Source: Bacteroidota bacterium (GTDB taxonomy: Bacteria > Bacteroidota > Bacteroidia > Bacteroidales > ML635J-15). From it: a stretch of DNA of 64,000 nucleotides. A program made the position numbers and the translations under genes. The stretch is taken from positions 3,463 through 67,462 of the forward strand of contig JAYEFQ010000134.1 of NCBI GenBank assembly GCA_034658655.1, in the 5' to 3' direction. The first letter of the stretch is position 1; the number at the start of each line of letters is the position of its first letter. A model generated the notes under the pieces. The model had not been told where the DNA came from, made no database searches, and saw only the letters and a program-made list of their open reading frames with translations. Positions 1 to 63,229 of this stretch are shown here, in pieces.

Positions 1-3000
1 ACAACTGGAATCCAAATGTATCATCCGGGGAAACCGCAACAAACCTAGCTGCGGGCGATTATGATGTCACAATTTCGGATAGTGGAACTTGTATTTTAGT
101 GCTAACAATCAATGTACCTGTAGATCCAAATACATTATCTGCAACTATTACAGACACTACACACATCAGCTGTTTTGGTGGAAATGACGGTGAAATAGTT
201 ATAACTGCAAGCAACGGTTATCCGCCTTATTCATACAGCTGGACAGGTTATCCAACAGAAACCGGAAACACATTAAGTAATTTAATCGCTGGAAATTATG
301 AAGTGATTGTAACAGATAATGTCGGATGTGAAATCACTTTAAACCAAACACTTAACGAACCATCACCACTTACCATTACTGGTGACAGCATTACCAATAT
401 ACTATGTTTCGGTGACAATACAGGTGAAATTTTCACTACTGCCGGTGGAGGAGTCATTCCTTACACTTATACTTGGGAGGATAATTTAGGAACAGACTTA
501 GGAGTTAATGCAGATAATATTTCAGGACTAAGTGCAGGTGATTATACGCTTTTCCTTACTGATGACAATAATTGTGGACCCGTATCGCAGAGCTTCACAA
601 TTACAGAACCTGCAAACTCACTAACACTTAGCATTTTAGTCGATAGCATACCATCATGTCCTGGTTTATTTGATGGTGGATTAACTGCAACTGCAGCCGG
701 AGGAACCGCACCTTACTCCTATCTTTGGGATGCTCCGATTGCCGGAAATACAAATCCAATACAAACAAACTTAGGAGCAAATAACTATTCAGTGACTGTA
801 ACAGATAATAATGGATGTACAGCTGAAAACAATATAACATTAAACGATCCAACACCATTATCCATCAATATTGTCACAAACGATGTGCTTTGTTTTGGTG
901 ACGCAAATGGTGAAGCTATTGCTCAAGTTTCTGGTGGAACTCCAATTTACACGTACAATTGGGAAGATGCACTTAGTAATATTGTTTCACTTGACGACAC
1001 AGCATCCAACTTAATTACAGGAAACTATTACCTTACAGTTACCGATGCAAATGGATGTAATGAAATTGCATCTGCGGTAATCTCAGAGCCAGATGCATTA
1101 ACGGCAACAACTTCACAAGTAAATGTATCCACTTGGGGAAATAATGATGGATCGGCAACAGTAAATCCATCTGATGGTACTCCAACCTACACTTATGAGT
1201 GGGAAAATGCAGCAGCTCCCGGAGTTATTATCTCTACCAACCAAACTGCAAACAACTTAAGCGCAGGAACATACAACATTACAATAACCGATGCGAATGG
1301 ATGCATTTGGACAGGATCTGTAACAATTACCGAACCTAACGACCCACTCGAAGGAAATATCATTACACATCAGGATGTTTTATGTGCCCCAGACAGCTCC
1401 GGGACACTTACTGCTCAAGCCTATGGAGGAACAACTCCTTACTCCTACTATTGGGAAAACAGCAGCGCAACATGGAATGCAAGTACGGCAACAATAACAA
1501 ATCTTCCGGCAGACACATACTTTTTAACAATCACAGATGCAAATGCTTATGAATGGGATACAACGGTTACAATTACTCAACCAGCAGAACTCATTATTGC
1601 AAATGGAAATCATACCGATAATTTATGCTTTGAAGATTCTGCAGGAACTGCAAGCATAGTTGTAAACGGTGGTGTTCCAATCTACAATTATCTGTGGAAC
1701 GACCCGACGAATTCAACAAGTGATAATATTTCCAATGCGCCCGCAGCGACTTACCTTGTTCTTGTCACAGATCAAAATGGATGTACTGCCGATACAAGCA
1801 TTACAATTACAGAACCAACCGAAATTCAGATTTCAATCATAACCACTGCAATGCCAACCTGTTTTGGAGACAGTGACGGATCTATATCAGCAAGCATTTC
1901 AGGCGGAACAGGAGCATACAATTATGTATGGGAAGATGATGCATCTGTACTTGTCTCAGTAACAGATACTGTGATTAATATTCCCGCAGGAAATTACTAT
2001 TTAACAGTTACCGATGCAAATGGATGTGAATCGACCGCTATTCATACCTTATCTGAACCATCAGATTTAACAGCAACCACTAACCACACAAATGTTACTA
2101 CATGGGGAAATAATGATGGAACTGCATCCGTTCTTGCGGCCGGTGGAACAACAACGTATTCCTATAATTGGGAAGACAATGCAAATCCAGGAGTTAGTAT
2201 ATCGACAAATGCCAATGTAAACAACTTATTTGCAGGAACATACAATATTACCGTAACCGATGCAAACGGATGTATTTGGACAGGATCTGTCACGATTACT
2301 GAACCAAACGATCCACTTGGAGGAAATATCACAAACCATGTAGATATCTTATGTGCCCCAGATTCAACCGGACAACTCACTGCATCTGGCTACGGAGGAA
2401 CTCCTGCATATTCATATTATTGGGAAAATTCAAGCGCAACATGGTCATCGAACTCATCTGTAATTACAGACCTTCCCGCTGACACATATTATCTAACCAT
2501 TACAGATGCTAACCTTTACGAATGGGATACTGTTGTAACGCTTACTCAACCAGCAGAATTACTCATTTCAGCAGGAAACCATACAGACATCCTCTGTTAT
2601 GAAGACAGTACAGGAACTGCAAGCATAAATGTTGCCGGAGGTATTTTCGCATACATCTATCAATGGGATGACCCAACACTTTCTACAACTGATGATATTG
2701 CAAATGCTCCAGCAGGCACCTATACAGTAATTGTTACTGACCAAAATTCATGTACTACTGATACGAGTATTACAATCACTCAACCAGATGCATTAAATCT
2801 AACGATGATAGTAACGGCAGAACCACTTTGCTTTGGAGACAATAATGCATCTGCAGGCATAACAATTAATGGTGGCGCGCCAAATTACAACTACAGCTGG
2901 GAGAATAGCTTGGGGAGTTTAATTTCCTTAAGTGATACACTCGTCAATGTTGGTTCAGATTATTATTATTTAACGATTACTGATAATAATGGCTGTGTCA

Positions 3001-6000
3001 TCAATGATAGCATTGAAATTACAGATCCTCCATTGCTTAATGCAACAATTACAAATACAAATGTATCCACTTGGGGGAATAATGATGGCTCAGCAACAGT
3101 CAATCCATCTGATGGTACTCCAACCTACACTTATGAGTGGGAAAATGATGCCAGCCCTGGAACAATAATTTCCACAAATCAAACCGCAGATAATTTATAT
3201 GCCGGCAGTTATTCTGTCACTGTAACGGATGCAAATGGTTGCGAATGGTACGGTTCTGTTACAATTACTGAACCAAACGATCCGCTCGGTGGCAATATTA
3301 TTGTACATGAAAATGTTTTATGCGCTCCGAATTCAACCGGAACATTAGAGGCAGCAGCGTTTGGCGGAACACCTGATTACTCATATTATTGGGAAAATGC
3401 AACGGTAACATTAACCTCAAACAATGCCGAATTTAATAATTTACCGGCAGGTTCTTATTTCCTCACAATTACTGATGACTTAGGATATACATGGGATACA
3501 GCAGTAATTATTTCTCAACCACCGGTTCTGGAAATAACCAACACCTACCAAACAGACGTAACCTGCTATGGCGATTCAACCGCCTCGGCTAGCATTGCAG
3601 TAAACGGAGGCACTATGCCGTATAATTATGCATGGGACGGATTCGCATCAACTAATGATACATTATTCAATCTTCCAGAAGGAGTGTATTATGTTACTGT
3701 TTTTGATTTCAATGGATGCATGGCTGACACATTAATTAAAATCGAAACGAATGACTCCATTGAAATGAATTTCATGGTCACAGCTATGCCACTATGTAAT
3801 GGGGGAAATGAAGGCTCATTATTTGTTACGATGACAGGCGGCACAGCTCCTTTTACATATTATTGGGAAGATGAAAGTAACAATAACATCTCAAATACAG
3901 ATACTGTAACCGGATTACCAACCGGCAATTATTATCTTACCGTAACAGATGCCAACGGATGCATACAAAACGACTCTGTCTTTTTACCAGAACCAGATCC
4001 ATTAGACTTAAGCTTAAGCGGTGTTGATGCAACAGGTTTTGAAGCCTCGGATGCTTACGCATGGGCCATAGAATCCGGAGGAACTCCCACTTATTACTAT
4101 CAATGGGAAAACATTACTGATCCAGGAAATATCTTATCAAATCAGGATACACTTTGGAACGTAACATCAGGAACTTATAACTTGACATTAACAGATGATA
4201 ACGGATGTACAATCGAAGATCAAATAACATTAAATCAACCAGACGAGCTAGTACACACCATTATCGGCAGCAATGTACAATGCCATGGAGACACAACTGG
4301 CGGTGCTTGGATGCAAGTTAGCGGTGGGGTTCAACCATACTCCTACTCTTGGGAAGATGAAAGCGGCACCGAAATTTGGACAGACAGTGTCATGATTTAT
4401 ATCCCGGCTGGAACTTATTATGTCACAGCAACTGATGCCAACGGATATACAACCAATGATTCGGTTACAATTATTCAACCACCTGCACTTTATTTTGGAC
4501 TCGACAGCGTACAAAACATACTGTGCTATGGTGATAATTCTGGATATATTGATTTAAATCCAAACGGCGGCACCCCTCCCTATAATATGGAATGGATACT
4601 CACAGATGATCCCTCAACTATTCTCGATAATGATGACTTTATTGAAAACATTTTTGCCGGAGAATATATGTTCACGATTATTGATGACAGCACTTGTGTT
4701 TATGATACAATCATTACAATTACACAACCCGATAGCCTTGAAGTTATTCTAGAAGCACAGGGAGATGTCACATGTTATAGCTACGACAATGGGTTTATTG
4801 ATGTTGATGTGATTGGTGGAACACCACCATTTCAATATGAATGGTTAGATGAAACAAATACCGTGTTTGAAACCGACACCGATAGCGTTGGAAATCTTGC
4901 TCCGGGAGCTTATACAGTACTCGTCTCTGACGCTAATCTCTGCGCTACAGACAGCATAAACTTTTTAATTACTGAACCAGAAGAATTCACCTTCAATGTT
5001 AATATTGATTCGGTATATTGCTTCGGGGAAAACACAGGCAGTGTACAAATAAATCCGAATGGAGGAACACCTGCATTTGATTATGTTTGGATATTTGAAG
5101 GAGATACTATTATTAATAGCAATTACCCTGCACTATTCAATCTCGAAGCAGGCGATTATGAAATATTTGTCAATGATGCAAATACCTGCTCGTATGACAC
5201 AACACTGACAGTGCAAGAGCCGACATCCTATCCGAGCTTAAGCATTGACCTCACTGACTCACTTGATTGTTATGGGCTTTCAAACGGCGAAATCACAGCC
5301 CAAATCAACGGAGGGACACCAGATTACGACCTATTTTGGTCAAATGGCAGTGGTGGTGACGGTGAACTTGAGGACATTAGTAGCGGCGTACATATCATTA
5401 CAGGAATAGAAGCCGGAAACTTTGTCTTCCAACTAAGTGATGCTTACGGATGTACTACAACTGAATCAATTCTCGTTCCTGAACCAGATGAAATTATTAT
5501 TGATTTTTTCAATAACGACATCTCATGTAATGGAGCAAATGACGGACAAATACAATCTTTGGTAAGCGGAGGAACAACTCCATATCTATATTCTTGGGAC
5601 GGAAACTCTGTGGTAACAGACACTGCGATAAACAATCTGGCACCAGGTTGGCATTCACTCGAAATCACAGATGCAAACGGATGTACACAGATAGATTCTA
5701 GTTTTATTTTTCAACCCGACTCATTACTCATCGAACTTATAGACACTTTATTCCTTAATTGCAATGGAGATGAAAATGCATCAACCTTTCCAGTAATTAC
5801 CGGAGGAAACACTCCTTACCAAGTCGATTGGCTTAATGAAAGTGGAGATACAATTCATAACACACCATATATTAATAACATTGGCAGTGGATGGTATTAC
5901 CTGCATGTAAGCGATGCAAATGGCTGTTATACTTCAGATTCTATGTACGTTTATGAACCCAACGCATTATCAGCAAGTATGGAAAGTTTCTTAACATCTT

Positions 6001-46381: not shown

Positions 46382-47726
46382 CTATTCTTTCACAAATTGC
46401 CCCCAATAAAATTTACCATCTGCATTTACACGAACAGTATAAAGGCCTGAAGTCAGATCAGAAAGGTCAAGTTCAGCACCTGCATTGTACGTTTTATCAA
46501 TACACAATTGTGCTTGTTGATTAAAAATTTTCAAGCGACCTGCTTGCGCGTCAAAATTAATACGGACAAAATCGCTTGCCGGATTTGGGAAAATTTCAAG
46601 TTGATTCATTCTTATGTATTGCACTTGTGCATTTGACGTATAACAATCAGGATTGCAACCTTCCTCCAAACAACCACATTCATCAACCTTGATAACAAGT
46701 GAAGACTGCACGCCGCCCGGAAACATTTCGCTATCGGTGCTTAAATACTCACCAGCCATAATAAAGCCGCCATCACTTGTAGCTGTTAAGCTATATGCCT
46801 TTGTGTAACACCAATCAGCATCCGTATTTTCAGGAAAACATTCATAGTAATTTACCCATTGTACATTGTATTGTGTATCTATCTTTATTAAAAAACACTT
46901 TCCCTGTATAAGATGAATTTATACCAGCAAGGTATATTTCTCCTGTTTCAGACTGATAAACATCATTCACATAATAACTCATATTATTCAAGGAAGAGTT
47001 ACCCCAACTTAAACTCCGCTTCCACAACACATTACCATTGGCATTCATTTCACCTATCCATATGGTGCTACTATCATTGTGGATGCGTGGTGCTCCTGGA
47101 TTAATTGTATTGCGAATATATGGATCACTATAAGTAAATAAAAAATTACCATCTGGTTTTGGAAAAACAAAAGGGCGGTAATTTAAGGTATCATAATGAC
47201 CAAAGGCACAGCGCCACAATTCATTACCCAAGCTATCTACTTTTAAACAATATGCATTTTGGTTTATAACAGACGATGTGGTTATGGGCTCCTCAAAAGT
47301 AAAAACAAAACCACCATCATTTGTAGGACATATTTGTAATGGCCTTTTTATATCAGCATACAGATTACTTGAAGTGGTGCCATACTCCCTGCTAAACATT
47401 AAATTGCCTAAAGTATCCATTTTATGAAAAGACAAGGTAAACTTGTTATTATAATCGAATGCGTAACCAAGTATTAACAAATCTGAGTTGAAGGACTCAA
47501 TAACAAAAAACAATATCCCTTTTTCTATAGTTAATTCAGGATATAACTTTAAAGAAATAGTATCTAAAGTGCTATTTGAAAATTTTATAAGCATTGGATA
47601 AAATCGATTAGCATCATACTCTATATGGCCTGTCAAGTAAATTGCATTTCCATCATTAGCCACAGCCTTTGAATTAAAAGCAAATGTTGTATTTAATAAG
47701 GAGTCAATAAAAAAATCCTCATTCAA
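46382..47726 (-). pseudogene. Disrupted gene for a beta-propeller-repeat protein with a T9SS type-A C-terminal domain (frameshift; no signal peptide)
   Basis: The ORFs at 46842-47726 and 46382-46759 join into one frame if one T is removed from the T6 run (plus-strand A6 at 46890-46895): ...SSYTGKVF-LIKIDTQYNVQWVNYYECFPENTD..., which restores the recurring K.D..GN..W repeat. C-terminus LEIFPNPASD...LTSGLYTVRV is a type-A CTD. The 5' piece starts at a TTG with no signal peptide. Confidence 0.6.
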
Positions 47727-56204: not shown

Positions 56205-57266
56205 ATGAAAAAATACATCTTTTCTACATTTATAGCGTTGCTCACAATCCTGTTAATAAGCTGTGACACAGACAAGTGGTACCACGTACCACCTAAAGCA
56301 TCTGACTATGTAGAGCACTTTCAGGCTATGGCTGAAAATCGAGGTTATGATATTGACATTGAAGAAAGCGGATTAATTATTGAATTTGGTTCAATTGAAG
56401 AAGATTTAAATTCTAAACTCTATTATGAGGATCCGATACGCATTGTCATTGACGAAAATGCTTGGAATAATTCCAACGAAGAACTTAAAGCACTTGAAAT
56501 TTACAGAAATCTTGCTTTGGGTTTTCTTAATAGACAAACACTTAATGAGAAATTTCCTAACGGAGAATGGAAAAGTTTAATGCGAGGTGAAGTATTTGAT
56601 GAAAATGATAATAAAACCTTGAATTTCTTTGGATTTCGTCAAGATCACTACATCAATGAAATGTTTTATCTGGAAACGGAAACCCCTTGGTGGGCAGATT
56701 ACACTTCATTATATGACAGTATAAGAATGCAAGATGCAGATGATGTTTTATCTGATGACGTTTCGCTTGATGACTTGGAATGGGATTATATTTCTACTGG
56801 TTTAGACATCGATTTTGAGAATGAAGAGCTCATTATAGAAAACGATAATGAATATGAAACGTCTATCTTGGCACAATTAGAGACTTACCTAAACGATGAC
56901 TTTTTTATTGAAACCATTATTAAAATTGATAATTCGGAACCTAGTACTTTTAGTGGACTGATTTGGGGCGGAGCCGGAATTAACACATTTTATGTGAATG
57001 GATATAATGATGCATGTGAAAGTAGAATGTATAATGCTGCTGAAGACTACGATTATTGTCATTTCACAGATTCCTGCTCAATAGTTATCCCCAATGGATA
57101 CAATAAAATATCCATCCGCAAAGTCAATGAAAAGTACCACTTTTTTATCAATGAAAAATTTATTTATATTACTGATATACACAAACTATATGGCAATCAA
57201 TTTGGATTTTACATTGGTGGCAATAGTACAGTACATATTAATAGACTAAGTATAAAATCGGAATGA
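56205..57266 (+). CDS. Hypothetical lipoprotein, 353 aa
   Basis: Lipobox (LLISCDT). Acidic central region. The C-terminal ~130 aa look like a lectin/jelly-roll fold (weak). No family recognised. Confidence 0.45.
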   Translation: MKKYIFSTFIALLTILLISCDTDKWYHVPPKASDYVEHFQAMAENRGYDIDIEESGLIIEFGSIEEDLNSKLYYEDPIRIVIDENAWNNSNEELKALEIYRNLALGFLNRQTLNEKFPNGEWKSLMRGEVFDENDNKTLNFFGFRQDHYINEMFYLETETPWWADYTSLYDSIRMQDADDVLSDDVSLDDLEWDYISTGLDIDFENEELIIENDNEYETSILAQLETYLNDDFFIETIIKIDNSEPSTFSGLIWGGAGINTFYVNGYNDACESRMYNAAEDYDYCHFTDSCSIVIPNGYNKISIRKVNEKYHFFINEKFIYITDIHKLYGNQFGFYIGGNSTVHINRLSIKSE

Positions 57267-57342: not shown

Positions 57343-59985
57343 ATGAAAAAATTATTCTTTTTTATATCTGTATTACTGTTTGCCGGGGCTATTTTCAGCC
57401 AAAGTATTACCTTAACTTCTCCAAACGGAGGACAAACTTAGGCAGGATGCACAAACCAATCTATCACATGGAATTCGAGTGGAACATCAGATTATTATTC
57501 CTTGGATTATTCAACCGATAACGGTTCTTCTTGGACATCCATTACCAGTTATTACAACACAACTTCTGAATCCTATTCATGGACTGTTCCAAACACATCA
57601 TCAGGCATTTGCTTGATTCGAATTACCGACTCAAACAATTCCGGAACCAGTGATATAAGCGATGCAGTTTTCACCATTACATCTCCGCTTACCGTTTCAA
57701 CTCCGAATGGCGGAGAAACATGGGAAGGAAGTACTGCAGAAAGCATTACGTTTACAAAAAACGGAACATCAAATTATTATGATATTTCCTATTCAACTGA
57801 TGCGGGCGGAAGTAACTGGACAAATATCGCATTCAATCAAAACATTACAAGCGACTCCTATCCATGGACAGTACCTGGCTCAGTTTCACAAAACTGTTTA
57901 ATTAAAGTCACCGACAATGTTAACACCTGTAAAACAGACATGAGTAATCAGGTATTTGCAATTGGCACAGCAGCCATTGACATTACTGTTGATGCACCTG
58001 CAGGTGGCGAAGTCTGGAACGGTTGTACAACACAAACAATCAATTGGACATCCATTGGAACTTCCAACGATTATGATCTAGCTTACTCAATTGATGGCGG
58101 TGCAAACTGGACATCTATCGAAGATGATTACAACACAACACTCAATACTTACGACTGGACAATTCCAAATGAAAACTCTGCTAATTGCCTAATTCGTGTC
58201 AGAGACGCAAACAATACCAATTTTTATGGCATTTCTCCGACAGAATTTGAAATTGCAAGCGTAATTGCTGATGCAGGGGAGAATTTTGCACTGTGTATGG
58301 GCGGTAGCCAACAACTTTCAACAAACGGTGGCGTTACATATGCTTGGTTACCAACCAATGGATTAAGTGATCCAAACATTGCAAATCCAATAGCAAATCC
58401 AACATCAACAACAACTTATACCGTTTTTGTTACTGACGCAAATGGATGTACAGATTCTGATGAAATTACCATCACTGTAAATCCTATTCCGGCATCACCG
58501 GTAGCAGGAAGCAACTCCCCTGTTCCACTCAACGGAACATTGGAATTAACTGCCAGCACCGTTGCATTTGCAAATTATACATGGACAGGACCCAATGGAT
58601 ACACCTCCAACCTGCAAAATCCGGAAATCAATAATGCTAACTCTGCTTTGGATGGCACATACGAAGTCACTGCCATTGTTTATGGTTGTGAGAGTGCTCC
58701 TGCTTCCACAGCTGTTACTGTATCTGGAACACCATCAAGCATCATCCTTAATGGTGCAGTGATTACCGAAAACAACTCACCTGTCAATGGAGTCAGCCTA
58801 AACCTGACCGGTGACTTAAGTAATAGCTTTACAACTAATCCTGACGGATTATACTCTTTCGCAGTGGACAATGGCGGAGCATATGAAATTGCAGCATCCA
58901 AAAATAACGATGTCACTACAAATAATGGAGTTTCCACATTGGATATCATTCTAATGCAAAGACACATTCTCGGTGTTCAAGCTTTATCTTCACCATACAA
59001 AATTATTGCTGCTGACGTTAACCGATCAGAATCTGTGAGTACATTGGATATTCTTTACACACGTGCATTGATTCTTCAAACTTCGAATAGCTTACCCGGA
59101 GGCGACCTTTGGACATTTGTCAATAGCGATTATGTATTCCCAGATGCACAAAATCCATTCCCATATGAGCAAACTCGATTATATAGTAGTGCAACGGAAC
59201 TTGCTGATCAAAATTTCACAGGAATTAAATTGGGCGATGTCAACAACTCATGGAATAATAACATCGCAAAATCAGGAACTGAAAACTTGAACTTCAGAAT
59301 TGACAACAATAATTCAAGTTTTGGAGAAGTGATTGAGATTCCTGTTTATGCTGATAATTTTAATAACATCAGCGGATTCCAAATGAGCATTGAATGGGCA
59401 GAAAACAAACTGGAATTTGTAGAAATTGATAACCAAGCAATTGAACTATTTTTCAATTCTAATCATTTGAACAATGGCATGCTTTCTTGCCTGTGGAGTA
59501 CAGAAAATGCTAATGGCTTTGATATTGACAGTGATGACGTACTTTTCACAATGAAATTTGAAATCATTTCAGATCTAAATGAAACTGCAAGCATTAGTTT
59601 TAACTCAGTATTAACAGAATCAGAAGCATACAACCATGAACTTGACATTATGAACATTCAACTTGATGGCGGAGATATTATCCTGAACAATTACCTCTAC
59701 CTGAATGAAAATGAGATGAGCACTGTACTCAATGCCTATCCAAATCCATTCAGAGAATCAACGAGATTGGTATTTTACCTTCCTAAAGCTGCCAAAGTGA
59801 ATTTTAAGCTGTATTCTATCACAGGAAAATGCTTATGGACATATTCACAAAACTATATGAGTGGCAAGCATAGTTATGATTTTAATGGAAGGAACAAACA
59901 AGGCGAAAAGCTTTCACCCGGAACTTACATTTTACGTTTCAGAGCAAATAATACGCTTAAAAACCACAAATTGATTATTCAATAA
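57343..59985 (+). pseudogene. T9SS type-A-CTD surface protein (4 Ser/Thr-rich ~95-aa repeats, Ig-like modules, CRD-like, dockerin-like and cohesin-like modules) interrupted by an in-frame TAG at 57439-57441
   Basis: The ATG at 57343 gives the signal peptide MKKLFFFISVLLFAGAIFSQ in the same frame as the track ORF (57502-59985). The only interruption is TAG where repeats 2 and 3 have Trp (GGQT*AG versus GGETWEG and GGEVWNG). C-terminus LNAYPNPFRESTRLVFYL...LSPGTYILRF is a type-A CTD. Confidence 0.6.
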
Positions 59986-60004
59986 GGCTGAAAAGTAAAA
60001 TGTT

Positions 60005-63000
60005 ATGATTATGAAATATTTAATAAGCATATTAATCGGAATCAGCATAGGACTATCTAGTTTTGCGCAGTCCGATGCTGTGACTATCCGAATCGGATCG
60101 GACGAAGGCATTAAAGGTTCAGAAGTACTAATCCCTGTAACAGCAGAAAACTTTACGGACATTCTATCTGCTCAAGGCAGCATTGCTTTCAATGAAAGTT
60201 TATTGCAATTTATCGGGACTGAAAACTACGGACTAAGTGGCATGACAGCCTCCTCCTTTGGAACAAGTCAAACCGGTTCAGGATACTTGACATTTTCATG
60301 GTATGACGCAAGCTTAATTGGCGAATCGCTTACAGACGGAACAACACTTTTTGCTATGCGATTTGAAGTTTTGGGTAGTACTGCTCAAACAACTCCAATA
60401 CAGCTTAGCAGCGATATTACACCTGTCGAAATTGTCAATAACTTGTACAACACACTCACAGTTTACGACCAAACAGGACAAGTAAGCATTCTTGCAAATC
60501 CTAATCCAGGAGTCGAACTCAATATCGGATTTTCAAACCATTCCGTTCCTGTGGGAGAAGAAATTCTTATCCCTGTAGAAGTCTCAAACTTTGACTTAAT
60601 CACTGGAATACAAGGAAGTATAACTTGGAATCCTTCAGTGATAAGCTTTGTTTCAACAGAATCTTATAACCTAAGCGACATGGGTTCTGGAAATTTCGGA
60701 ATAAATCAAACTGCATCAGGAACGCTTACTTTTAGCTGGAATGATATCGACCTTAGCGGGGAGACTCTCACTGACGGGCAATCTGTTTTCAGCCTACGTT
60801 TTCAGGCCGTTGGCAGTACAGGAGAACAAAGCAATTTAAGCTTAGGCAATCATCCAACCGGATTAGAATTTACTGACGTATCACTTTCAAGCATAGACTA
60901 TACGACAATTCCTGGAACAATCACCATTGAAAATTCATTACCAAGTGCAGATGTTTCCCTTCTGGCAGATTCTGTTGAAGGTGGTATCGGAGCTGTAGTT
61001 CAACTTCCTGTTAGAGTAAGCGATTTCTCAGACATCATTTCCTTGCAAGGAAGTTTATCATTCGATTCTAACATTGCAGAATTTGATACTATTATTCAAT
61101 ATGGCTTACCATCATTAGCTTATGCAAATTTCGGAACCAACAACGCAAGTTTAGGAAGCTTAAGTTTCTCGTGGAACGACCCTACCCTTGCCGGAGTTAC
61201 GCTTCCATCAAATAGTGCTATTTTTGTTTTACAATTTACGCTTATTGGAAACATAAGCGACATCTCTCCATTAGATTTTGTTGAAACACCAACTTCCTTG
61301 GAATGTGTAAAGAATGATTTTACAGTATTGAGCACAAGCACAAATCCAGGACAACTTAAAATCATCGATGTATATGAACTGGAAATTACCAATGTTTCTG
61401 ATGATGAATTTTGTGCCGAAGAAAGTTTTACAATTCAATACTTTGCTGAAGGAAATTTCCTTCCCGGAAACACATTTGCACTTGAATTATCCGACAACAC
61501 AGGTGATTTTTCGAGTACGACTGTCATTGGAAGTATAATAAGCACAAGCTCCGGAAGTGTAAATGCGACACTTCCAACAAACTTGTCTTCCGGTAATTAT
61601 CAAATAAGATTAAACGCAGATATGCCAGAATACACAAGCGATATTTGGGCAACTACACTTACTATTAATGCATTACCAAATGCCAATGCAGGTTCGGACG
61701 AAGAAATTTGTCTCGGCAATTCTGTAACACTAACTGCAACAGGTGGAACAATTTACAGCTGGGATAATGGCGACAATACTGATGCAATTACTGTTAATCC
61801 TACCGTTGACACCGAATATATTGTCACTGTTGAAGATGTTTTTGGATGTCAAAATACTGACACGGTGCAAGTAATAGTACATAATTTACCAACCGCTTTT
61901 GCAGGTAACGATCAAGACATTTGTCTCGGAGAAACAATCACACTTACTGCAACCGGTGGTGTAGATTACGAATGGAGCAATGGAGATATGACAGTGAGTT
62001 CAGATATTACTCCAACCACAAACACAGAATACATTGTCACAGTTACCGATGCAAACACATGCTCAAATACCGATACAGTATTGGTTAATGTTTTTGAAGT
62101 TATTGCTGATGCAGGAACTAACGAGGACATTTGTGAAGGGGAATCCCTAACGATCACGGCAACCGGTGGAACAGATTATGCTTGGTCAAGCGGAGATAAT
62201 ACTGCTACAACAACAGTTAATCCAACAGCGGACACTGAATATTATATCACAGTTACAGGGGTGAATCTTTGTACAGATATCGATACGGTACTCGTCAATA
62301 TTTTTACACCACCTGGAATTCCTGAATTACCATTAGGAATTATAGACCGTTGTTCTTCCGCAACAACAGACACTTTTACGATTCCTTCAATAAATAATAT
62401 TAGCAATTATATTTGGGAGACAGACATCATCGATTTTGGTAGTATCTCAAGTACTGATACAATGGCAATAATCCAATGGTCAGCGAATTTTCATGGAGAA
62501 TTACAACTGTTTGTCACAGTTGAAAATATCTGCGGTAGTGCTACCTCTGAACATTTGGTAATAACAACAACAGAAACACCTAATGTAAACTTGGGTGAAA
62601 ATCAAACCATTTGTGAAGGAGACAGCACTTACCTTACGGGACCTGAAAATGCAACCTATGCTTGGTCAAACAGCTTAACAAGTCAAGGAATTTGGGTTAG
62701 TACATCAAATATTTATTGGCTTGAAGCATCAAACAACAGATGTATCAACACAGATAGCATCGAAATTTCCACATCTAATCCGGAATTTTCCTTTGCTGAA
62801 GACACAATTTACACAGATTTACCATATATATTGTATTCCGAAAGTGGATATGACTCCTATCTATGGTCATCAGGAGAAACGGAAGATAATATTACAATCA
62901 CAGAGCCGGGATGGTACACTGTAAACATGTGGAATGAATATGGTTGCGAGGTTTCAGACTCTGTTTATGTTGATGATTTAACAGGTATTGATTTACATGA

Positions 63001-63229
63001 GACATTTAGCTTTTCTGTTTATCCAAATCCGGCAAATAAAGCAATACAAATTCATGCATCGAATTATCCATGTACTGTAACGATTTACACAATTACAGGA
63101 AGGAAAATCAAACAGATACGAATTAAGGCTGACAGACAAATTAACTTAGAGAATTTCTCTCTTGGCACCTACTTAATTAAAGCGAAGACAATTAACCAAA
63201 CATCACAAAAACAATTTGTAATATTATAA
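60005..63229 (+). CDS. T9SS type-A-CTD surface protein with three tandem cohesin-like modules, followed by Ig-like C-x-G...GG..Y.W modules
   Basis: Signal peptide (GLSSFAQ). Three homologous ~135-aa modules at about 60074-60493, 60512-60919 and 60947-61369 (G.E(V/I)LIPV...Q(G)S(I/L).(F/W)(N/D)...(L/I).F...G.L(T/S)FSW.D...(L/V)F..(R/Q)F...G). Three tandem ~70-aa modules at 61669-62305. C-terminus FSVYPNPANKAIQIH...LGTYLIKA is a type-A CTD. Confidence 0.75.
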   Translation: MIMKYLISILIGISIGLSSFAQSDAVTIRIGSDEGIKGSEVLIPVTAENFTDILSAQGSIAFNESLLQFIGTENYGLSGMTASSFGTSQTGSGYLTFSWYDASLIGESLTDGTTLFAMRFEVLGSTAQTTPIQLSSDITPVEIVNNLYNTLTVYDQTGQVSILANPNPGVELNIGFSNHSVPVGEEILIPVEVSNFDLITGIQGSITWNPSVISFVSTESYNLSDMGSGNFGINQTASGTLTFSWNDIDLSGETLTDGQSVFSLRFQAVGSTGEQSNLSLGNHPTGLEFTDVSLSSIDYTTIPGTITIENSLPSADVSLLADSVEGGIGAVVQLPVRVSDFSDIISLQGSLSFDSNIAEFDTIIQYGLPSLAYANFGTNNASLGSLSFSWNDPTLAGVTLPSNSAIFVLQFTLIGNISDISPLDFVETPTSLECVKNDFTVLSTSTNPGQLKIIDVYELEITNVSDDEFCAEESFTIQYFAEGNFLPGNTFALELSDNTGDFSSTTVIGSIISTSSGSVNATLPTNLSSGNYQIRLNADMPEYTSDIWATTLTINALPNANAGSDEEICLGNSVTLTATGGTIYSWDNGDNTDAITVNPTVDTEYIVTVEDVFGCQNTDTVQVIVHNLPTAFAGNDQDICLGETITLTATGGVDYEWSNGDMTVSSDITPTTNTEYIVTVTDANTCSNTDTVLVNVFEVIADAGTNEDICEGESLTITATGGTDYAWSSGDNTATTTVNPTADTEYYITVTGVNLCTDIDTVLVNIFTPPGIPELPLGIIDRCSSATTDTFTIPSINNISNYIWETDIIDFGSISSTDTMAIIQWSANFHGELQLFVTVENICGSATSEHLVITTTETPNVNLGENQTICEGDSTYLTGPENATYAWSNSLTSQGIWVSTSNIYWLEASNNRCINTDSIEISTSNPEFSFAEDTIYTDLPYILYSESGYDSYLWSSGETEDNITITEPGWYTVNMWNEYGCEVSDSVYVDDLTGIDLHETFSFSVYPNPANKAIQIHASNYPCTVTIYTITGRKIKQIRIKADRQINLENFSLGTYLIKAKTINQTSQKQFVIL

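Follow-up and report, generated by a model that had tools for sequence, protein, structure and literature searches.

Cohesin-like and dockerin-like modules encoded by two neighbouring genes for type IX-sorted proteins of a Bacteroidota bacterium

The pairing of cohesins with dockerins is the textbook route to multi-enzyme machines in Gram-positive cellulolytic bacteria, and the type IX secretion system (T9SS) is the textbook route by which proteins of Bacteroidota reach the cell surface. Non-cellulosomal cohesin and dockerin modules were reportedly catalogued by Peer et al. in 2009 (FEMS Microbiol Lett 291:1). Here we describe two adjacent genes, A and B, in a window of 64,000 nucleotides (the whole stretch of DNA analysed: GenBank assembly GCA_034658655.1, contig JAYEFQ010000134.1, positions 3,463 to 67,462 of the forward strand) from a Bacteroidota bacterium of the Bacteroidales. 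Their products are predicted, from sequence profiles and structural models, to carry true type-I-like cohesin and dockerin modules of the two Pfam families that build the clostridial cellulosomes (Clostridium thermocellum CipA, OlpA and OlpC; Acetivibrio cellulolyticus ScaB and ScaC). The nearest published parallel that we found is the predicted cellulosome-like complex of Ca. Stygibacter (Cloacimonadota), which, like the present locus, is known from genomes only, and in which a cohesin-rich scaffoldin has a T9SS-type C-terminal domain (CTD) and peptidases carry dockerins (PMC8542988). That complex belongs to another phylum, its enzymes have plain C-terminal dockerins and its scaffoldin has carbohydrate-binding modules (CBMs), and no cassette of a transthyretin-like module, dockerin, X module and cohesin (TTR-DOC-X-COH), such as that of gene A, is described for it (PMC8542988). 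Surveys of the rumen assigned dockerins and a few cohesins to Bacteroidetes (PMC6487960), and in reviews of the T9SS cohesin and dockerin figure solely as the clostridial alternative (PMC11611037). A full-text literature search, with the catalogue of Peer et al. lying outside it, brought up no study of function or structure for this family or for cohesin-dockerin pairs in T9SS organisms.

From the N-terminus, the product of gene A consists of a signal peptide, three Kre9/BNR-like repeats, Ig_7/PKD-like domains, the TTR module, the dockerin, the X module, a cohesin and a T9SS CTD, and that of gene B of a signal peptide, three cohesins, an Ig-like/PKD/Ig_7 stalk and a T9SS CTD (Table 1). A preliminary description of the window had proposed one duplicated dockerin-like segment and four mutually homologous cohesin-like modules. 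All five modules scored above the curated Pfam cut-offs for Cohesin (PF00963, 24.1 bits) and Dockerin_1 (PF00404, 22.9 bits), the modules of gene B being scanned one at a time. BLASTP aligned the cohesin of A with the first and second cohesins of B (B1, E=1e-14; B2, E=3e-12) and B1, B2 and B3 with one another (E=1e-24 to 1e-32), and the four shared strand motifs proposed earlier were visible in the alignment. An AlphaFold2 (AF2) model of A residues 456-880, calculated from a 91-sequence alignment, reached a mean predicted local distance difference test score (pLDDT) of 92.9 and a predicted template modelling score (pTM) of 0.79, and its elements ran in the order five strands, helix, short helix, helix, three strands, a sandwich of nine or ten strands and the CTD sandwich. 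When this model was searched against the PDB with Foldseek, cohesin-containing chains made up all of the first 17 matches and nearly all of the first 50, and the A cohesin superimposed on solved cohesins with root-mean-square deviations of 2.4-3.5 Å. The closest folds were type-I cohesins, with target-normalised template modelling (TM) scores of 0.79 for 3ul4_A, 0.78 for 5nrm_A and 0.73 for 4dh2_A, against 0.53-0.61 for type-II cohesins; the non-cellulosomal cohesins of C. perfringens (2w1n and 2jh2) and A. fulgidus (2xdh) were also among the matches. On these matches the A module is predicted to be a cohesin and not a generic Ig or CBM sandwich. The fold comparison covers the A cohesin, to which the B cohesins are tied by scores of 89-107 bits against a hidden Markov model (HMM) built only from the cohesins of class-1 cassettes, the architecture of gene A. 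A Pfam scan of the whole B protein reported zero cohesins, though each module passes alone. This miss is a scanning artefact, and annotation pipelines that work on whole proteins may systematically overlook poly-cohesin proteins like B.

The dockerin of A is made up of the segments DVTTNNGVSTLD-IILMQRHILG and DVNRSESVSTLD-ILYTRALILQ, each a 12-residue loop with its helix, bridged by the nearly invariant linker L-x-SPYKIIAAD. Against PF00404 it scored 26.0 bits within the full-length protein and 29.2 bits as an isolated segment (E=1e-6). Searches of the PDB with single sequences were weak (E of 0.007 or weaker), so that a family profile was needed for its identification. A profile of 42 family dockerins, run against all PDB sequences, gave 24 matches, all 24 of them dockerins; the best was the ScaB dockerin of A. 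cellulolyticus (4uyq_B/4uyp_B, E=2.5e-11), and 8zvk, 8x39, 4dh2_B, 5nrk_B, 1daq, 2ccl_B and 1ohz_B were further matches. In the AF2 model, helices at A residues 532-543, 551-557 and 567-577 correspond to the exit helices of both F-hands and to the helix of the linker. The segment thus has a dockerin layout of loop-helix, linker-helix, loop-helix, and the family profile matches dockerins only. Also among the best profile matches is a solved fragment of 151 aa labelled 'Serine protease', which contains two tandem dockerins (8x39_A/8x3a_A).

Across 119 homologues, the second loop of the dockerin has the canonical 12-residue F-hand form D558-x-N560-x-S562-G-x-V-T/S-T-x-D569, with D at position 1 in 111/119, N at position 3 in 100/119 and D at position 12 in 118/119. 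At positions 1, 3, 5, 9 and 12 the window protein reads D, N, S, S and D in loop 2 and D, T, N, S and D in loop 1, and residues D523, N528, G529 and D534 of loop 1 are conserved across the family. In the same homologues hardly any variation is seen at the helix residues H541, I542 and L543 or in the linker SPYKIIAAD; together with loop 2, these parts point to purifying selection on the F-hand. The preliminary description had taken several calcium-ligand positions to be substituted, by T, S and R. Of these, the R lies at loop position 4, which has no ligand role, and the S at loop 2 position 5 agrees with the family consensus. From this pattern at least one functional Ca2+ site is expected in the dockerin.

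The same pattern bears on whether such modules still bind each other. They might have kept the homology and lost the interaction, serving now as spacers or as glycan- or ligand-binding domains of adhesins, that is, as generic beta-sandwich and Ca-binding elements; the degenerate first Ca loop, the lack of carbohydrate-active enzymes (CAZymes) and CBMs in A or B by Pfam, the identity of only 12-22% to characterised cohesins and a literature in which we found no functional study of such proteins are all in keeping with this. Loss of binding nevertheless seems quite improbable because of the conservation pattern, in which the dockerin helices, loop 2 and linker are strongly conserved across hundreds of sequences, and dockerin and cohesin genes are persistently linked. 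Moreover, the non-cellulosomal pairs of the C. perfringens toxin complexes and of Archaeoglobus fulgidus that have been tested do bind, and 2w1n and 2xdh of the same organisms are among the fold matches.

The dockerin does not stand alone. When five sub-HMMs were mapped on 127 homologues, collected in a search with the C-terminal half of A, it was always preceded by a TTR module of ~65 aa and followed by an X module of ~60 aa. These data amend the earlier picture of a free-standing dockerin: it is embedded in a conserved TTR-DOC-X unit. The TTR module scored 24.9 bits against PF13620, which is below the cut-off, and 74.5 bits against the family HMM; it has five strands in the AF2 model, and its Foldseek matches are TTR/CnaB-like sandwiches. 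The X module carries the motif LW.FV..DY.F...PFP...NQ.F.GIKLGDVN.SW, in which W, F, K and D do not vary among 48-91 aligned sequences. Modelled alone, the unit of ~190 aa formed one compact body (pLDDT 92.4, pTM 0.86). A Foldseek search of the PDB with this model found only TTR/CnaB-like sandwiches, at E values of 3e-3 or weaker, and no PDB structure spanning the whole unit was found by Foldseek or by a profile search with the TTR-DOC-X HMM. At the end of the X module, the invariant K-x-G-D-V-N resembles the first half of a third dockerin Ca loop (Table 1), and we speculate that it could complete or replace the degenerate first Ca site.

This unit recalls the X-module-dockerin (XDoc) dyads of types II and III, such as XDocII of C. 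thermocellum CipA (2b59/5k39) and that of R. flavefaciens CttA, in which the dockerin is packed against a presumably buttressing beta-sandwich. Unlike in these dyads, sandwich elements stand on both sequence sides of the A dockerin, and no structural match to known X modules was found; unlike in the type II XDoc systems, the A cohesin is nearer to type I by its TM scores.

Two architectures recur among the homologues. Class 1, as in gene A, is a variable passenger followed by TTR-DOC-X-COH-CTD. Class 2 consists of a signal peptide, an enzyme or binding domain and a TTR-DOC-X unit directly before the stop, with neither cohesin nor sorting domain; its passengers include Peptidase_S8, Peptidase_S9, esterase, VWA, ThuA, glucose/sorbosone dehydrogenase (GSDH), Kelch, RCC1 and FG-GAP domains, and one such protein is named lysyl endopeptidase by its source. 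A search of a species-representative genome set with a degenerate DNA pattern for the linker PYKIIAADVN gave at least 120 stretches, and all locus counts below refer to the 120 matches listed. TTR-DOC-X-terminated proteins without a cohesin made up 34/94 homologues, and 11 were found in the listed loci, which also contain cohesin-only proteins with 1-5 cohesins. In 116/140 dockerin-bearing open reading frames (ORFs) of these loci, the dockerin is followed by a cohesin in fixed order and ~60 residues away. Many family proteins stop right behind the X module, with the ending ...GDVNxSWDPNTP-stop (homologues P0029-P0116, e.g. P0101, P0104 and P0114; loci L028, L068 and L097).

All of the listed PYKIIAADVN matches come from Bacteroidota. 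Most belong to Saprospiraceae, Lewinellaceae, Phaeodactylibacter, Aureispira and Chitinophagaceae, and a few to metagenome-assembled genomes (MAGs) named as 'Bacteroidales'. The TTR-DOC-X-COH-CTD cassette terminates many different proteins, mainly in Saprospiraceae, Chitinophagales and some Bacteroidales or Cytophagales. Several genomes have 3-5 separate loci; the exact PYKIIAADVN occurs on 5 contigs of MAG CAZCXH01 and on 4 of Umea1_bin-0343. At E<=1e-3 the TTR-DOC-X profile matched 33,624 of 1.84 billion cluster representatives, and at E<=1e-30 it matched 6,593; both counts are upper bounds, arrays of TTR-like domains scoring too. Many of the best 150 profile matches contain a single full-profile match, placed either at the extreme C-terminal end or ~240 residues short of it. 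At NCBI, some members already bear the name 'cohesin domain-containing protein' or that of 'T9SS type A sorting domain-containing protein'. A and B are therefore not an isolated oddity; they represent one copy of a very large family, already annotated automatically and still uncharacterised. The only cultured isolate among the 120 matches listed is Pontibacter aydingkolensis KACC 19255 (L120, NZ_JAHYXK010000012.1). There, a COH-TTR-DOC-X-COH-CTD gene is followed directly by a cohesin gene (1-3714), and the strain is a practical organism for experiments.

Sorting signals were found at both ends of the two proteins. Their N-termini are typical Sec signal peptides (MKKLFFFISVLLFAGAIFSQ in gene A and MIMKYLISILIGISIGLSSFAQ in gene B), and the type-A T9SS CTDs that had been proposed for both were recognised above the curated cut-offs of 27 bits for PF18962 and 23 bits for TIGR04183. 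In an NCBIfam scan of A and B, these CTDs were the sole recognised features. No T9SS machinery gene came to light in the window, where no search aimed at one was made. By Pfam, no catalytic or carbohydrate-binding module was detected in the stalk of gene B, and no CAZyme or CBM in either protein.

Table 1. Positions of genes A and B, their modules and other features in the window
Feature	Position	Strand	Description
Candidate second T9SS cargo gene	46385-47726	-	294-aa ORF (46842-47726) overlapping out of frame a stop-to-stop piece (46385-46918) with a T9SS type-A CTD (PF18962, 41 bits)
Predicted lipoprotein gene	56205-57266	+	353 aa, LLISC lipobox; directly 5' of gene A
Gene A	57343-59985	+	ATG at 57343, stop at 59983-59985; 880 codons including in-frame stop; ORF list, translation, Pfam
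Repeats of gene A	57403-58257	+	three x ~95 aa, Kre9_KNH/BNR/Reelin-subrepeat-like; weak Pfam matches
In-frame TAG, codon 33	57439-57441	+	TGG>TAG; separates signal peptide from rest of protein
TTR module	58708-58902	+	transthyretin/CarboxypepD_reg-like beta-sandwich, directly 5' of dockerin
Dockerin of gene A	58897-59097	+	two F-hand repeats (58906-58974, 59008-59076); PF00404
X module	59098-59274	+	~60 aa of beta strands, always directly 3' of dockerin; family HMM 94 bits
End of X module	59245-59274		A residues 635-644, IKLGDVNNSW
Cohesin of gene A	59278-59712	+	in cis with dockerin; PF00963 41.3-45.7 bits
T9SS type-A CTD of gene A	59716-59982	+	PF18962 32.6 bits, TIGR04183 40.4 bits
Gene B	60005-63229	+	1074 aa, intact ORF; 3' of gene A, 19-nt gap, same strand
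Cohesin 1 of gene B	60080-60490	+	PF00963 38.2 bits; class-1 cohesin HMM 107 bits
Cohesin 2 of gene B	60518-60934	+	PF00963 46.3 bits; class-1 cohesin HMM 105 bits; PDB 4ums cohesin E=0.007
Cohesin 3 of gene B	60962-61369	+	PF00963 25.1 bits, just over cut-off; class-1 cohesin HMM 89 bits
Stalk of gene B	61400-63004	+	Kre9_KNH-like, PKD_4, Ig_7 and PKD_6-like beta-sandwiches; Pfam scores near or below cut-offs
T9SS type-A CTD of gene B	63011-63226	+	PF18962 42.3 bits, TIGR04183 40.0 bits

The pairing of an A-type with a B-type gene was found in other genomes. The order YggS, ~354-aa lipoprotein, gene A and gene B is kept in three syntenic relatives (L001, L003 and L004) with ~60-70% protein identity, and the B orthologues again open with three cohesins. 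The B orthologues P0121 and P0122 (58-67% identity) are named 'cohesin domain-containing protein' at NCBI; an exact-sequence search for gene B in public assemblies gave no match. More than one family ORF was present in 38/120 listed loci. In 13/120, from different families, a cohesin-only gene comes next after a class-1 gene on its strand and encodes 1-5 cohesins, either together with a CTD or lacking one (L022, L026, L032, L034, L042, L043, L046, L048, L053, L065, L077, L091 and L120), the gaps that were checked ranging from a few to ~300 nt. These 13 loci, the three syntenic relatives and the class-1 HMM scores of the B cohesins together argue that the A-B pair is a recurrent two-gene module and not a coincidence, and the genomic context supports a functional link between A and B. 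That the dockerin of A plugs into the cohesins of B in particular is a tentative proposal: it is favoured because the adjacency is conserved, and disfavoured because the dockerin adjoins the anchor of A and the cohesins of B lie far from the anchor of B.

Some of the cohesin-only genes are larger. In L022, L032, L046, L065 and L091 (Saprospiraceae and Chitinophagaceae) they encode three to five tandem cohesins, with no CTD in the visible part, and in L032 and L091 a small separate COH-CTD gene adjoins the five-cohesin gene, an arrangement that hints at multi-tier assemblies. In L001 (3574-15010; ENA ERZ21878204, contig ctg7806l), the orthologue of A is split into parts of 2066 and 457 aa and that of B into five pieces, splits that probably come from indel errors of a long-read assembly and not from biology.

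Taking sequence and models together, we lean towards the reading that the modules of this family are functional cohesins and dockerins which provide Ca2+-dependent, non-covalent attachment on the outer surface of T9SS-bearing Bacteroidota, with B-like proteins as hubs and TTR-DOC-X enzymes as clients. A and B would be exported by Sec and sorted by the T9SS, and the CTD would presumably be exchanged for a lipid or lipopolysaccharide anchor; CTD cleavage and attachment to the cell surface are established for T9SS type-A cargo. The dockerin, carried by the TTR/X sandwich and with Ca2+ stabilising at least the second of its F-hands, would bind the sheet face of a cohesin on another protein. Cassette proteins, having both modules, could give and receive connections and so form chains; poly-cohesin proteins such as B, which bears its three cohesins on the tip of its Ig-like stalk, would act as multivalent hubs, and proteases, esterases and other proteins terminated by TTR-DOC-X would be held non-covalently as clients. 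The outcome would be an outer-surface network of non-covalently joined proteins, following the logic of the cellulosome without its content. The occurrence of the modules apart as well as together is what would be expected if binding took place in trans.

Several observations weigh against this reading. The Foldseek search with the TTR-DOC-X model returned no dockerin, the 60-residue helical part probably being too small in a 190-residue query. Loop 1 is atypical: in the family at large its positions 3 and 5 vary and often hold hydrophobic residues, and roughly half of the members have a loop that is shorter by two residues. Only a single dockerin was found in the 64-kb window by the family HMMs, and its gene is disrupted. 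The dockerin of A lies near the anchored C-terminus and the cohesins of B at the tip of a stalk, an awkward geometry for docking on the same cell. Class 2 proteins have a Sec signal peptide, no lipobox and no T9SS CTD, and their route across the outer membrane is not known. Finally, the pTM of the 425-aa cassette model suggests that the modules are packed within one chain, and a clasp in cis fits this at least as well as binding in trans.

Such a clasp, the main rival of the favoured reading, would mean that the cassette dockerin binds the cohesin of its own chain and forms a rigid, Ca-stabilised structural base above the T9SS anchor, cohesin-only and dockerin-only proteins being derived side branches. 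It would account for the constant spacing and order of the two modules in most dockerin-bearing ORFs and for the AF2 model, in which the low-confidence linkers of the four-module construct are short and the mutual arrangement appears confidently fixed. It would leave unexplained the many TTR-DOC-X-terminated proteins without a cohesin and the adjoining genes with 3-5 cohesins and no dockerin, and we hold it to be possible, if unlikely. Cellulosomal proteins are known to contain intramolecular dockerin clasps as well as X-Doc buttresses (for instance, by its title, PMC3821032). Mean-field direct-coupling analysis of 239 cis dockerin-cohesin pairs (effective number of sequences, 225) was dominated by gap artefacts and gave no credible inter-domain pair, and hence no signal either way.

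The class 2 proteins also allow a bolder variant of trans attachment, in which TTR-DOC-X-COH-CTD is a general sorting-and-display device of environmental Bacteroidota and the CTD-less enzymes reach and stay on the surface only through the cohesin of a CTD-bearing partner, either after export or by hitch-hiking through the T9SS translocon from the periplasm. We consider this quite improbable. If true, B-like poly-cohesin proteins would be the loading hubs of a cell-surface 'exoenzyme rack', which could account for a long-standing observation in the Saprospiraceae of activated sludge, their cell-bound hydrolysis of protein.

In the genome at hand, gene A is probably inactive through a nonsense codon and a contraction of its repeats. 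The premature stop reported in the preliminary description is indeed a TAG in frame (Table 1). At this site three orthologues (...SPNGGQTWAGC...) and the paralogous repeats of A itself have Trp. The orthologues start MKKLFF...SQSITLTSPNGGQTWAGC, and those of L003 and L004 (L003_A, L003 2185-9972; L004_A, L004 2156-9967) are intact proteins of 2595-2603 aa with the same C-terminal cassette. They contain ~27 repeats against 3 in gene A, which in BLASTP is colinear only with their first ~300 and last ~880 residues and has ~1,700 residues fewer. This shortfall is either a true contraction by repeat recombination or a collapsed assembly of the tandem array. Recoding of TAG was considered and rejected: TAG is a normal stop, ending 5/29 long ORFs in the window. 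The longest unbroken ORF restarts from a TTG at 57502 and has no signal peptide. With the TAG and the lost repeats, A would not be exported, barring assembly errors in the base call and the repeat array. Downstream of the TAG, the 847-codon frame is fully open and its cassette, in which no conserved residue is lost, shares 69-72% identity with the orthologues, so any inactivation would be recent or very recent.

It is probable that gene A is a decayed relic, a pseudogene in a pair that no longer works here, and that B alone serves as a stalked adhesin or binds dockerins encoded elsewhere; in the network that we favour, B would then be without the dockerin of its neighbour. A stop of the ordinary kind in place of a conserved Trp, a restart ORF deprived of the signal peptide and a length far short of the orthologues all argue for decay, and a second gene of the window with a T9SS CTD also appears to be frameshifted. 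Against it, a one-base change could be an error of sequencing or assembly, the collapse of repeats is a frequent assembly artefact, and the open frame and intact conserved residues behind the stop are not those of a long-decayed gene. The second gene, on the opposite strand (46385-47726), looks like a T9SS cargo gene broken by a frameshift and bears on the choice between decay and assembly error in A.

Compared with clostridial systems, A and B combine familiar parts in an unfamiliar way. As in clostridial type-I dockerins, the F-hand of the A dockerin is duplicated with near symmetry and has basic residues at helix positions 17/18; as in clostridial scaffoldins, B has multiple cohesins and a cell anchor, and A, with both modules, resembles adaptor scaffoldins. 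Unlike in clostridial cellulosomes, the host is a diderm member of the Bacteroidota, a T9SS type-A CTD stands in place of SLH or sortase anchoring, CBMs and glycoside hydrolases are lacking in A and B, and most family members have a dockerin fused to a cohesin in cis. The A dockerin, unlike clostridial ones, is set between a TTR sandwich and X strands and not free at the C-terminus, and its first Ca loop is non-canonical. B has the several cohesins and the surface anchor of a scaffoldin (three cohesins and a CTD), whereas dockerins on CAZymes and a scaffoldin CBM were not found, the dockerin-ended relatives carrying Peptidase_S8, Peptidase_S9, esterase, VWA, ThuA, GSDH, Kelch and FG-GAP domains. 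We therefore rejected the class of cellulosome for A and B, given the lack of CAZymes and CBMs, the T9SS anchoring and the embedded dockerin. The non-cellulosomal modules of C. perfringens GH84C (2w1n/2jh2) and A. fulgidus (2xdh) are like those of A and B in lying outside cellulose degradation, often in the same polypeptide, and unlike them in having neither T9SS sorting nor a TTR-DOC-X unit.

What is new here is a family of T9SS-coupled, TTR/X-buttressed cohesin-dockerin cassettes. Its components are familiar ones; its architecture and scale, the conserved gene pair and the dockerin enzymes without a CTD together raise a testable question, that of how environmental Bacteroidota arrange the proteins of their surface. 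If the modules bind like their homologues, large environmental groups of Bacteroidota, including the Saprospiraceae that dominate protein hydrolysis in wastewater sludge, would organise their surface proteome by a non-covalent plug-and-socket network, and new orthogonal cohesin-dockerin pairs would become available for synthetic scaffolding in diderm hosts. The cultured carrier P. aydingkolensis KACC 19255 makes the network idea directly testable.

The surroundings of the pair were also inspected. A polysaccharide-utilisation or enzyme-cluster setting was rejected, the neighbours being housekeeping genes (YggS, DUF4293, MoxR and LptA-like). The predicted lipoprotein encoded directly 5' of gene A had no match in Pfam or NCBIfam. 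It was rejected as a component of the system, being missing from all 120 other cassette loci listed. A lipoprotein occupies the same position in the three syntenic relatives, with 39-71% identity; it is a lineage-specific neighbour that stands outside the cohesin-dockerin system.

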